Below the pieces are notes generated by a model that saw only the letters and a program-made list of their open reading frames with translations, did no database searches and had not been told where the DNA came from. A DNA stretch of 64,000 bases from positions 3,737 through 67,736 of the forward strand of contig JAUSJH010000006.1 of assembly GCA_030647655.1 (NCBI GenBank), in the 5' to 3' direction. The translations under genes were made by a program, and so were the position numbers. Of the stretch, positions 58,352-60,198 are shown in pieces; positions within the stretch are counted from its first letter, which is position 1, and every line of letters starts with the position of its first letter. Source of the stretch: a bacterium. Its GTDB lineage: Bacteria; Patescibacteriota; Minisyncoccia; Phycocordibacterales; UBA2100.

Positions 58352-58410
58352 TCAAAGCATCTTCACGTCGATGGAGGCACCGGAGGGGAGGTCGATGTTG
58401 GTAAGGGCTC
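58352..58410 (-). pseudogene. relic copy of rpsJ 3' end (encodes ALTNIDLPSGASIDVKML-stop)
   Basis: About 85% nucleotide identity to 59761-59815; reads as the S10 C-terminus; no upstream ORF. Confidence 0.6.
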
Positions 58411-58426
58411 ACATTTTATGTGAGCC

Positions 58427-58747
58427 CTAAAAACACTCACGTACTTCAGCCAATACTTCCGCGAGTTTGCGTGCGGTAAGTGCATCAGCAGTTTGCTTAA
58501 TAAGCGTCTTATCAGCGCTGAAAATATTTTGCAGGCTAATATACGATGCCTTGCGTAGCCGTTTCCTCCGCATATCGGCGTTGGTGATAGTTATTGAAAA
58601 AGGCTGCTTCCTGCCATATATGCCAGCAAGAAGAACATTCGCGTGCCGATTGTATCGCGCGCCAGAGAGAACGACAGCGGGTCGCTGTTTCTTTTCTGCC
58701 ATGTTTGAAAAAGGAAATTCGAGTATGACGATATCGCCCTGTCTCAT
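58427..58747 (-). CDS. mazF: type II toxin, MazF/PemK family
   Basis: MRQGDIVILEFPFSNMAEKKQRPAVVLS matches GD.v.v.F.....E...RPavVls; 4-nt overlap with the upstream antitoxin. Confidence 0.7.
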   Translation of the reverse strand: MRQGDIVILEFPFSNMAEKKQRPAVVLSGARYNRHANVLLAGIYGRKQPFSITITNADMRRKRLRKASYISLQNIFSADKTLIKQTADALTARKLAEVLAEVRECF

Positions 58748-58998
58748 ACGATCGAGACGTTGAACAGATCGTCATTCACCTCATCGAGCCAGTCCCGCAT
58801 CGTATGCTCGACGATCGACAAATGATCATTTTTGTCCCCACGCGCGCTCTTTGCACGAAGCGGTCTGATAACAACCTCCTCATCTCCGCGCTCCTCGAAC
58901 AATACTGCCCGCGCACCTACAAACGCTTTACTGTCTCGTATTATTTTGGGAAGCGTGATTTGCCCTGCCCGCGTGATTTTGCTTATTGTTGTCAACAT
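58744..58998 (-). CDS. mazE: type II antitoxin, AbrB/MazE (SpoVT-AbrB) family
   Basis: ISKITRAGQITLPKIIRD swapped-hairpin motif. Confidence 0.6.
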   Translation of the reverse strand: MLTTISKITRAGQITLPKIIRDSKAFVGARAVLFEERGDEEVVIRPLRAKSARGDKNDHLSIVEHTMRDWLDEVNDDLFNVSIV

Positions 58999-59059
58999 AT
59001 CAGCCAGAATACCAGAGAATAGGAAACTAGCAATATAGTAATCCTGGGGTCAGGGGTGT

Positions 59060-59170
59060 CTACATCATCTTGACGTCGATGGAGACTCCGGATGGGAGGT
59101 CGATATTGGTGAGGGCTTTCCGCTCGAGGCGGATCCGCATTTGGCGGACGATGACCCCAGCACCAAACTT
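59060..59170 (-). pseudogene. relic copy of rpsJ 3' end (encodes ...KALTNIDLPSGVSIDVKMM-stop)
   Basis: 53/60 nt identical to 59761-59820; upstream part diverged. Confidence 0.65.
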
Positions 59171-59243
59171 AAGTTGGTACGGGGCATGCTTTCGGGGCCC
59201 TTCTCTTCGTATCCATGTGTTGCTGGTGCTTAGTAACCGCCCG

Positions 59244-59495
59244 TCACTTTTTGTAATGATTCGTCACAGCCAAAACTTCAGCTTCACCTTCCTGGGTTAT
59301 GAAAAATAATGCGCGATACTTCCGGTCAATACGAAACGAGTAAATGCCGCGCCAGTGAGGCTCGAGGAGCTCGGTTCTGAGAGAGGGATAACGGATATTT
59401 ATCTCGAACAACTTTGCGGCCTTTCCCCATTTCGCGACAAGTCGCCGTTCGTGTAAGTATTCGCGGACATCATTGCGCAATGGGAGGATATTCAT
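59244..59495 (-). CDS. type II toxin, RelE/ParE superfamily (YoeB/Txe-like)
   Basis: ...HWRGIYSFRIDRKYRALFFI...EVLAVTNHYKK (C-terminal HY); ATGA overlap with the upstream gene. Confidence 0.6.
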   Translation of the reverse strand: MNILPLRNDVREYLHERRLVAKWGKAAKLFEINIRYPSLRTELLEPHWRGIYSFRIDRKYRALFFITQEGEAEVLAVTNHYKK

Positions 59496-59722
59496 GCCTT
59501 ACCGTATGAAGACCGACGCAACCCTTTCTCAAGATCAGCAAGAAACTCCTTGGAATATAACTTTGTTTTGGCAAAATCTTCGATGACAATACCCACGTCA
59601 TCGTGTACCACAACCTCAAAGAGCCGCCCGGCAAGTTGCCGGTATGCTTTTGACTGACGCTTTAGAGCCTGGTATTCGTCTTTGGGGATCGTTATTTTGT
59701 TCATACGGTCGGAGTATAACAC
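59492..59722 (-). CDS. putative antitoxin partner of RelE-like toxin
   Basis: 76-aa ORF immediately upstream and overlapping the toxin; no motif recognised. Confidence 0.4.
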   Translation of the reverse strand: MLYSDRMNKITIPKDEYQALKRQSKAYRQLAGRLFEVVVHDDVGIVIEDFAKTKLYSKEFLADLEKGLRRSSYGKA

Positions 59723-59760
59723 AGACGTTTCGGGTGCAAAGGAAGGATTTCCGGCCGGAT

Positions 59761-60198
59761 TTACATCATTTTGACGTCGATTGAGACTCCGGAGGGAAGG
59801 TCGATGTTGGTGAGGGCTTCGATGACCTTCGGTGCGGGGTTCAAGATGTCTATCATGCGTTTGTGAATGCGCATTTCGAATTGCTCGCGTGAGTCTTTGT
59901 CGATGAATGCGGCGCGATTGACCGTGTATTTCTTGATATCAATAGGGAGCGGCACGGGGCCGATGACCTCGGCATTGTGCCGCGCGGCGACGTCGATTAT
60001 TTGCTTAACTGATTTATCCAAAACACCGTGCTCGTATGCGCGCACGCGAATGCGCAAGCGGCTCGGGCCAGCGACGGCTTTTGCTGGCTTGGCAGGCTTG
60101 GAAACACGATGTATAGGAGCAGGAGAAGCGGCGGCGGGTGTAACCACCTTTCTGGCACGCGGTTTGCGTGCCTTTTTCGCGACGGCTTCTGCTGTCAT
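59761..60198 (-). CDS. rpsJ: 30S ribosomal protein S10 (with about 40-aa basic N-terminal extension)
   Basis: RLRIRVRAYEHGVLDKSVKQIIDVAARHNAEVIGPVPLP...RIHKRMIDILNPAPKVIEALTNIDLPSGVSIDV. Confidence 0.85.
   Translation of the reverse strand: MTAEAVAKKARKPRARKVVTPAAASPAPIHRVSKPAKPAKAVAGPSRLRIRVRAYEHGVLDKSVKQIIDVAARHNAEVIGPVPLPIDIKKYTVNRAAFIDKDSREQFEMRIHKRMIDILNPAPKVIEALTNIDLPSGVSIDVKMM

Follow-up and report, generated by a model that had tools for sequence, protein, structure and literature searches.

The 3′ end of rpsJ, the gene for ribosomal protein S10, occurs three times in direct orientation in a 64,000-nucleotide (nt) stretch of a Patescibacteriota genome (contig JAUSJH010000006.1, positions 3,737 to 67,736; the whole stretch is hereafter called the window), and a compact type II toxin-antitoxin (TA) operon lies in each of the two intervals. 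The evidence supports the conclusion that the two distal copies, B and C, are displaced former ends of rpsJ that mark two successive acquisitions of self-promoted TA operons. Differences between the copies are almost only synonymous, and units of the same build recur, with other cargo, at rpsJ and tuf in related bacteria. As to how the operons arrived, we favour integrase-independent recombination with DNA of diverged relatives, anchored on the conserved gene, and put the probability of this reading at about 0.55.

The rpsJ ends and toxin-antitoxin operons of the window

The rpsJ gene (59761-60198; this and all other features of the array lie on the minus strand) encodes an S10 protein of 145 amino acids (aa) with 80+80 orthologous loci. 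The product matches the Pfam family Ribosomal_S10 (PF00338) at E=3e-30 over profile positions 1-98 of 98, and carries an N-terminal extension of ~45 aa that is rich in Lys, Ala and Pro. A repeat search recovered three direct 58-nt copies of a single family, located at 59762-59819, 59061-59118 and 58353-58410, with spacings of 701 and 708 nt. Copy A (59761-59819) is the working end of rpsJ and comprises its last 19 codons and the TAA stop codon. Copy B (59060-59118), a displaced rpsJ end, or relic, closing with TAG, is identical to A at 53 of 60 positions; six of the differences fall at third codon positions and one, in the boundary codon, at a first position. Copy C (58352-58409), the distal and most diverged relic, closes with TGA and is identical to A at 47 of 57 positions, with a V-to-A and an M-to-L replacement. 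The peptides encoded by the copies are KALTNIDLPSGVSIDVKMM and ALTNIDLPSGASIDVKML, each followed by a stop, and the first can also be written (E/K)ALTNIDLPSGVSIDVKMM. When a degenerate 46-nt pattern was used as a query, it matched at these three places and nowhere else, and none of 100 shuffles gave a match. The original prediction, which had named the three copies, the 53/60 identity of A and B and the peptides, was thus borne out by the repeat search, the pattern and the alignment. S10 is of full length, and B and C are direct copies that reach stop codons; the gene end has been regenerated and the old end displaced.

Likeness among the copies is bounded by the stop codon at one end and by AGCCCT at the other. 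The junction of copy C is crossed by a perfect 11-bp hairpin (AGGGCTCACAT-aaa-ATGTGAGCCCT, 58403-58427; free energy (dG) -12 kcal/mol, z -6.05), and the 3′ arm of this hairpin finishes in AGCCCT, the first 6 nt of copy C. These 6 nt, common to the hairpin arm and rpsJ, and 3-4 nt (GAA/A) shared at the junction of copy B are candidate microhomologies. Judged by its letters, the C junction resembles a join made at a microhomology. A double hairpin (TCCGCCaaatGCGGA-TCCGCCtcgaGCGGA, 59119-59148) adjoins copy B at its left boundary and belongs to a GGATCC-centred dispersed motif family. Members of this family, of the form TCCGCCnnnGGCGGA-TCCGCCnnnGGCGGA, were found in the window at 59119-59148, 13074-13103 and 39390-39419, in locus L005 at 10004-10033 and 18345-18374, and in loci L096, L115 and L132. 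In 2 Mb of Parcubacteria loci the motif occurs 9 times, once in the N-terminal extension of the L005 S10 protein, and the coding copies of the window and that of the L005 extension encode SAxGGSxSGGK in protein tails or extensions. The 32 nt upstream of B match the region of L005 rpsJ that codes for the N-terminal extension at 30 of 32 positions. Because the motif is a dispersed double hairpin (9 copies in the loci and 3 in the window), this match is no proof of an origin from rpsJ, and the idea that relic B is a whole rpsJ copy with an internal deletion was rejected on the same ground.

Islet 1, between copies A and B, contains an antitoxin gene of 70 codons read from the ATG at 59704 (59492-59704; the open reading frame (ORF) call starts at GTG 59722 and gives 76 aa), which has a 70-aa homologue in another array contig, L161, and no family match in profile searches. 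The toxin gene that follows (59244-59495) encodes 83 aa, belongs to the YoeB/RelE/ParE superfamily and has 426 homologues. Its hidden Markov model (HMM) matches were weak and below cut-offs (E=0.002-0.008), and a PDB profile search returned YoeB at E=0.014. The AlphaFold model, with a predicted local distance difference test score of 91, was placed by Foldseek on Staphylococcus aureus YoeB (7v5y) at a template-modelling (TM) score of 0.72, and TM scores on YoeB, RelE and YafQ were 0.6-0.72. The HMM evidence is weak and the fold evidence clear, and on this modelled fold we designate the protein a predicted YoeB/RelE-like toxin. Islet 2, between copies B and C, encodes a MazE/AbrB-like antitoxin of 84 aa (58744-58998; Pfam MazE_antitoxin E=1.5e-4 and NCBIfam AbrB E=1.4e-5, both below curated cut-offs) and a MazF/PemK toxin of 106 aa (58427-58747; Pfam PemK_toxin E=6e-14, above the curated cut-off). 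The placement of a RelE/YoeB-like pair between A and B and of MazEF between B and C, likewise part of the original prediction, therefore holds.

In both pairs the genes are co-oriented, the antitoxin comes first and the stop and start codons overlap by 4 nt, as in type II TA operons. Each operon is preceded by a promoter-like site. That of islet 1 (TTTGCA-16-TGnTATACT, 59713-59740) contains the -10 box at which homology to the L161 cassette begins, and that of MazEF (TAGACA-16-TACTAT, 59035-59062) lies in a region, ATTACTATATTGCTA..TCCTATTCTCTGGTA, that is conserved with another array contig, L163. The TAG stop codon of copy B sits within the -35-like TAGACA of the MazEF promoter. Read in the direction of transcription, the array runs rpsJ, copy A, the YoeB-like TA pair, copy B, MazEF, copy C and older downstream DNA.

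The source is a metagenome-assembled genome (MAG) and the copies look allelic, as they would if the assembler had concatenated strain variants of the rpsJ end. Exact runs shared by the copies, however, are at most 12 nt, the length of the longest run common to A and B; this is below any assembler k-mer, and no k-mer path would link the copies. The copies are also parted by intact TA operons with their own promoters, and the same architecture recurs with different cargo in independent assemblies (NCBI MAGs, JGI, ENA and Logan). With exact identity between A and B limited to 12 nt at a stretch, a repeat-induced assembly artefact is excluded, and concatenation of strain variants is highly improbable.

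Relics at rpsJ and tuf in related loci

The S10 protein of the window groups with Candidatus Kaiserbacteria-like Parcubacteria. Among 160 rpsJ loci fetched, 31 share with the window the C-terminus ...TNIDLPSG..., giving a clade of 32 loci. Relics of rpsJ were found in 5 of the 25 clade loci with at least 800 nt downstream of the gene, and a further relic, of 14 nt, was found on the shorter contig of L088. The relic of L001 (97 nt) accompanies a cargo of AbrB-type antitoxin and Doc toxin; that of L011 (144 nt), AbiEii and a SWIM protein on the opposite strand; and that of L081 (27 nt), a 400-aa gene without assigned function. In L002 the relic (27 nt) is separated from the gene by a 26-nt palindrome only (unit at 10408-10461), and in L088 by a 59-nt hairpin spacer only (unit at about 1075-1150). 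A protein-level scan of 153 loci (849 kb) found 6 rpsJ relics, all of them on the strand of the gene and none on the opposite one. All relics are direct, and those found by homology to the gene end reach the stop codon, with a variable 5′ truncation that leaves 14-144 nt. Across the clade, relic lengths are 14, 27, 27, 58, 58, at least 69, 78, 97 and 144 nt, and the common core is the gene end alone. In L003 and L010, a single rpsJ end is followed directly by other genes; these loci are too diverged to count as empty sites. As in the published definition of insertions with long target duplication (PMC2853133), the inserted units lack mobility genes and are bracketed by direct repeats of more than 30 bp of a target that is single-copy in insert-free genomes. 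The search of lineage relatives for insertions at the rpsJ 3′ end, which the original prediction had proposed, thus showed that the pattern recurs, both in these loci and in three further array contigs. Our literature search on TA cassettes at rpsJ in Patescibacteria found nothing relevant.

The three further contigs (L161, L162 and L163) were found through close homologues of both toxins. L161, whose toxin is 92% identical to the YoeB-like toxin of the window, carries a HicA gene end, an rpsJ relic, the YoeB-like cassette and an internal rpsJ fragment (EQFEMRI). L162 (MazF 84% identical) carries MazEF, a 78-nt relic, ~150 nt, a stretch like the islet-1 tail of the window fused to a truncated relic B, and an AbiEii gene like that of L011. 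The array of L163 (MazF 74% identical) consists of rpsJ, BrnT/BrnA, a damaged relic, MazEF and a further piece of rpsJ. Alignment shows the cassettes to be tight units: in the window and L161, the 90% identity of the YoeB-like operon begins at the -10 box and ends with the stop codon, with unrelated sequence on either side, and homology among the MazEF operons sets in ~45 nt before mazE and lasts up to the stop codon of mazF. The relics behind MazEF begin at rpsJ position -58 in the window, -78 in L162 and about -90 in L163, and the relic upstream of MazEF is common, together with the MazEF promoter, to the window and L163. Moreover, the order of the arrays is shuffled: the YoeB-like cassette stands first in the window, and behind a HicA module and a relic in L161. 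Remoter homologues of both toxins (62-74% identity) were found elsewhere, near HU, TrmB, clpP or tig. Since these homologues sit in other contexts, rpsJ is not the only site at which the TA cassettes occur. Away from rpsJ, some homologues of the YoeB-like cassette are bracketed by imperfect direct repeats of 27-65 nt, namely 3624-3650 and 4288-4315 in L164, 2063-2113 and 2796-2846 in L166, and 529-593 and 1135-1198 in L167, where the repeat begins 17 nt before the stop codon of an upstream gene of 134 aa.

A scar of the same kind lies at tuf, the gene for EF-Tu, which was located by tblastn 0.6 kb upstream of rpsJ (60802-62001). The tuf stop codon is followed by a spacer of ~78 nt (60725-60801) that forms two strong hairpins (dG -25.2 kcal/mol, z -7.7) and holds no cargo gene, and then by a 33-nt relic of the tuf 3′ end (60692-60724), comprising the last 10 codons and the stop, with 6 differences that are all at third positions. 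In L006, a Fic gene is followed by a tuf relic of 76 nt. In L083, a repeat of ~100 nt, covering the tuf end and its terminator, stands on both sides of a 283-aa gene; the terminator copies differ, and the hairpin is kept in both. L084 has a tuf relic behind a 25-nt hairpin (6710-6769). The corresponding protein-level scan for tuf, over 134 loci, found 4 relics on the gene strand against 0 on the opposite strand, and all four are in the Kaiserbacteria-like clade. At least three kinds of target gene are thus scarred: rpsJ, tuf and the unrelated 134-aa gene. Cargo-less units, made up of the gene end, a hairpin spacer of 25-59 nt and a relic of 14-33 nt with synonymous differences, were observed in L002, L088 and L084; the tuf scar of the window is built likewise, with its longer spacer.

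The spacer between tuf and rpsJ measures 0.6-5.3 kb in the clade and holds varied genes. In the window, it includes a 48-aa C-terminal fragment of an rve-type (DDE) transposase (60226-60372; Pfam rve_2 E=0.0095), and a 53%-identical transposase fragment occupies the equivalent place in L009 (3193-3327). In L011, the spacer contains what is, by its likeness to the L001 cassette, a probable second AbrB-type antitoxin/Doc pair (7676-8309).

Gene ends and relics were compared by simulating, for each functional/relic pair, the same number of random substitutions as was observed and comparing the amino-acid changes produced (20,000 simulations). In every pair, amino-acid changes were far below chance (P from about 1e-3 to <5e-5 per pair). 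For the window, A and B differ at 7 nt, 6 of them at third positions (P=6.5e-4); A and C at 10 nt, 7 at third positions (P=1.5e-4); and the tuf end and its relic at the 6 third positions mentioned above (P=2.5e-4). The rpsJ pair of L011 has 14 differences, 12 at third positions, and 0 of the 20,000 simulations were as low. That of L001 has 22 differences, 17 at third positions, and 2 amino-acid changes, and includes an AGT/TCC serine switch. In L002, there are 7 differences in 27 nt (5 at third positions) and, in L081, 9 in 27 nt (7 at third positions), both with 0 amino-acid changes. The tuf relic of L006 has 4 amino-acid changes among 20 differences, situated at the relic edge. The identity of functional/relic pairs is 67-91%. 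Because the differences are almost only synonymous, the copies derive from different functional rpsJ alleles and are not the decayed products of a local duplication; decay in place would give mostly non-synonymous changes, and a simple in-situ duplication is therefore excluded. On this pattern of codon differences, each relic appears to have diverged as a working S10 end in another lineage and to have been brought beside the present gene only recently. The closest relatives are 78-87% identical in the body of rpsJ, and neither copy can be assigned as native.

The same comparison bears on a true target-site duplication, in which a staggered-break/repair insertion duplicated 58 nt of rpsJ in place and the copies then diverged. 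The geometry is that of the published class of long target duplications (PMC2853133), and the L083 repeat spans both the stop codon and the terminator, as such an event might leave it. Neutral decay, however, would be mostly non-synonymous, and the pairs have 0-2 amino-acid changes among 6-22 differences (4 of 20 at the edge of the L006 tuf relic); moreover, the published repeats are identical at 44/46, 47/47 and 417/423 positions, as against 67-91% here. We therefore regard this explanation as quite improbable. A diversity-generating retroelement was considered and rejected, as adenines are not singled out by the mismatches (at the differing sites copy B has T, C, A, C, G and G, all at third positions); no reverse transcriptase was found in Pfam scans of window ORFs.

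How the arrays may have formed

Under the reading that we favour, diverged Kaiserbacteria DNA would be taken up, probably by transformation, carrying an rpsJ segment with its gene end and whatever lay behind it. This DNA would recombine into the chromosome with the conserved rpsJ sequence as the homologous anchor, and a second join would fall within the last 14-144 nt of the resident gene. Two routes to this second join are conceivable: illegitimate joining at a microhomology or hairpin, and a crossover with a relic that the incoming DNA already carried; by the latter route, the bracketed cassette could move on by an ordinary double crossover, or as a circle by a single crossover. The incoming end would become the working S10 end, which would make the gene a mosaic with a native 5′ and a donor 3′ part, and the old end, truncated at its 5′ side but reaching the stop codon, would be displaced with all that lies behind it. 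Repeated events of this kind would build an array with no need for an element-encoded integrase, and the insert would be kept in place by TA addiction and by the essentiality of rpsJ and tuf. The uptake of foreign DNA, the homologous anchor and the nature of the second join are what we infer, whereas the repeats, their descent from functional alleles, their recurrence, the varying boundaries, the tightness of the cassettes and the lack of a recombinase among the nearby ORFs scanned were observed; the anatomy of the arrays agrees with sequential displacement, in that displaced units keep a 3′ fragment of the anchor gene that is direct and variably truncated. Cargo-less units are what the model predicts for a donor with only its own terminator behind the gene.

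Several points weigh against this reading. The rpsJ genes of the sample are at least 13% diverged from one another, and RecA-dependent anchoring across such a distance would be inefficient. Copies B and C have left boundaries that agree within 1 nt, which hints at a defined site; random joins over 150 nt would match so closely with a chance of roughly 2%, whereas a defined recombination site, or inheritance via a circular intermediate, would account for the match. Contrary to the simple model, the gene end and the cassette do not always travel together, given how tightly the cassettes are delimited. Relics were found in 0 of 128 more distant Parcubacteria loci, though many of these carry inserts between rpsJ and rplC, and restriction to one clade could point to a lineage-specific enzyme. 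(In a Pfam census of ORFs in these distant rpsJ-rplC gaps, most ORFs looked spurious, and a clear RelE/ParE pair was present in L029 only.) Finally, the part of the genome visible to the analysis amounts to 64 kb.

Some of these points would suit site-specific recombination in trans. Here, integrase-less cassettes would be inserted and excised by a tyrosine or serine recombinase whose gene lies at another place in the genome or on a helper element, with attachment (att) sites that mimic the rpsJ 3′ end, in a manner comparable to cis-mobilizable elements, pseudo-SCC elements (SCC, staphylococcal cassette chromosome) and integron cassettes. Direct repeats that regenerate the gene end, tandem units, the close agreement of the B and C boundaries, limitation of the phenomenon to one clade, and tight cassettes in shuffled, integron-like order would all be expected of such a process. 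Gene-end mimics borne on elements would also evolve under coding constraint, and the motif ATGATGTA, which is invariant in most copies, could be the overlap region. Copy C, however, is without ATGATGTA. The repeats range in length from 14 to 144 nt, one MazEF family shows three junctions, scars at tuf and at an unrelated gene would require several specificities, and cargo is missing from some units. Pfam scans of 33 window ORFs (a part of all ORFs) turned up no recombinase, the only related match being the rve_2 transposase fragment between tuf and rpsJ; nor was one seen in the short inserts of L001, L011, L081 and L161-L163, which were read but not systematically scanned. In the same Pfam scans of the window, no intI was found beside the array, whose flanking genes are tuf and rpsJ. 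A search for an rpsJ-end mimic on viral contigs (IMG/VR, as a phage or plasmid attP) gave 0 matches, and the 58-nt relic has no attC-like fold (dG -3.7 kcal/mol, z 0.03), being no better than shuffled sequence. We consider a recombinase acting in trans possible, if doubtful.

These observations also show how much of the original prediction can be retained. It had described successive integrations into the 3′ end of rpsJ, in which the gene end is restored every time and the previous one is moved away, and this part is supported; the site-specific att mechanism that it attached to them is not. Evidence against its analogy with elements that target tRNA or tmRNA genes comes from the absence of a constant core or length, the three MazEF junctions, the several target genes and the cargo-less units. 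When the copies were aligned in search of an att core, as it had suggested, their boundaries could be located, and no core common to the clade emerged except the gene end itself.

A more far-reaching proposal would be a dedicated cassette-capture system of the Kaiserbacteria, in which the 3′ ends of the universally conserved translation genes tuf and rpsJ serve as docking sites, coding-constrained mimics act as portable recombination sites and a trans-acting, lineage-specific enzyme, so far not recognised as a recombinase, is the catalyst. We think it unlikely. If true, promoter-bearing TA and abortive-infection cassettes would be stacked, shuffled and exchanged across species, and the system would be functionally an integron built on the ends of housekeeping genes. 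Integrase-independent recombination anchored on the conserved gene remains the reading that we favour.

The wider window, known systems and meaning

The S10 operon is broken in the window. Between rpsJ and rplC (43969-44577) lie 15 kb (gap 44578-58351), which include genes for a YcaO cyclodehydratase (56218-57780), a nitroreductase/SagB-like protein (55481-56239) and a fusion of a phosphoribosyltransferase to a PQQ beta-propeller (53798-55480), as well as for an AAA_14/DUF4143 ATPase, a TPR protein and several large secreted proteins. Parts of this set are found near rpsJ in L004, L005, L012 and L013, in other orders. Because the YcaO, nitroreductase and phosphoribosyltransferase-PQQ genes, together with o161, o483 and o552, lie near rpsJ in relatives, the gap is a rearranged neighbourhood and not one element. 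The notion that the 15 kb form a single large island was rejected on this ground and because no fourth copy of the rpsJ end was found near rplC, either with up to 3 mismatches or at the protein level. The gap also contains three tandem 132-nt repeats (48762-49157; 93-96% identical) within the gene for a 464-aa secreted Cys-rich protein (48338-49732), and an ORF of 119 aa on the minus strand (53328-53687) with a long Gly/Glu/Ser low-complexity tail of (GE)n and GGE repeats built from tandem units of 6-9 nt.

Elsewhere in the window, two adjacent paralogues of 431 and 413 aa (15307-16602 and 16662-17903) have no Pfam match, share blocks that are 84-89% identical and contain Pro-rich PPPP tracts. 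A 941-aa protein (25941-28766, minus strand) gave weak matches to TraG/VirD4-type coupling proteins and HerA-like ATPases, and is adjoined by two paralogous peptidoglycan-binding/TIG-domain proteins (22861-25915). The window further contains smpB followed by tmRNA (tag ANKVARAVLSPIQVSDLQFAYALA, then a stop) and a tRNA-Ile with anticodon TAT (9667-10110, 10456-10838 and 2190-2264, respectively). At the tmRNA and tRNA-Ile genes, which are classic integration targets, no repeat family was found in a 3-kb direct-repeat scan and no integrase in Pfam scans.

Among known systems, the arrays resemble in part the insertion of restriction-modification (RM) units with long target duplication, in which the repeats are variable, mobility genes are missing and the mechanism is not known (Nobusato et al. 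2000; Furuta, Abe & Kobayashi 2010, PMC2853133). Most such cases are from naturally competent species, and the repeats are near-identical (PMC2853133). In both systems, a small addiction-type unit without a mobility gene is bracketed by direct repeats of more than 30 bp and of variable length; the repeats are single-copy in insert-free genomes, and some RM repeats overlap the 3′ end of the upstream gene. In contrast to the RM insertions, the cargo here is TA and abortive-infection genes, the targets are the ends of rpsJ and tuf in a lineage of the candidate phyla radiation (CPR), and the units are stacked in tandem arrays. The repeats here, moreover, fall short of near-identity, being 67-91% identical with synonymous-only differences, and represent different alleles.

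A second parallel is sequential displacement by homology-facilitated illegitimate recombination, as described for the effector-immunity arrays of the Vibrio cholerae type VI secretion system (T6SS) and for the strings of orphan toxin-immunity genes of Rhs and contact-dependent inhibition (CDI) loci (Kirchberger et al. 2017, PMC5361080). There, as in the reading favoured here, an upstream anchor is conserved, the incoming module takes the tip, the old one is shifted downstream with a 3′ fragment, the array grows by repetition and no integrase is involved. In the T6SS and Rhs arrays, however, the variable tip belongs to the toxin protein itself and there is selection for the displaced immunity genes, whereas here the anchor is a housekeeping translation gene, its protein sequence is unchanged and the cargo is unrelated to it.

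Recombinase-less tandem elements bounded by repeats of a gene 3′ end are also known as the cis-mobilizable elements (CIMEs) that lie beside streptococcal integrative and conjugative elements, and as the pseudo-SCC elements at rlmH in staphylococci. The arrays described here share with them direct 3′-end repeats that delimit consecutive recombinase-less elements and the regeneration of the gene end. CIMEs and pseudo-SCC elements, however, have a fixed core and a known integrase (Int or Ccr) of a neighbour or helper, and here we saw no constant core and no integrase. The cassette arrays of chromosomal integrons are rich in TA cassettes, and they, too, consist of tight cassettes at one chromosomal position whose order is shuffled between genomes. 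Unlike integrons, the present arrays have no intI and no attC hairpins, the cassettes occur in both orientations and the repeats between them are pieces of a coding gene. In the minimal mobile elements of Neisseria, one slot with conserved genes on both sides holds differing cassettes, which transformation followed by homologous recombination in the flanks exchanges for one another; differing cassettes in one slot are likewise seen here, but the Neisseria elements are not known to leave duplicated gene ends.

Taken together, these comparisons indicate that the arrays are best placed among integrase-independent insertions with long target duplication, which form a known class, or under sequential displacement. 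What is distinctive is that the duplicated gene ends stem from different alleles. With these arrays, long target duplication and sequential displacement, described for RM, T6SS and Rhs loci, also take in TA modules and essential translation genes. It provides a sequence-level record of the entry of accessory genes into streamlined, uncultured CPR genomes, at the highly conserved tuf-rpsJ-rplC neighbourhood. The synonymous-only divergence of the relics is a built-in marker of DNA from another lineage, and the scars are usable to count and date recombination between lineages in organisms that resist cultivation. In addition, rpsJ and tuf serve as phylogenetic and binning markers, and foreign 3′ ends and pseudo-ends can mislead the calling of marker genes and the trees built on them. 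If a dedicated enzyme were behind the pattern, the ends of these genes would constitute a new platform for cassette capture.

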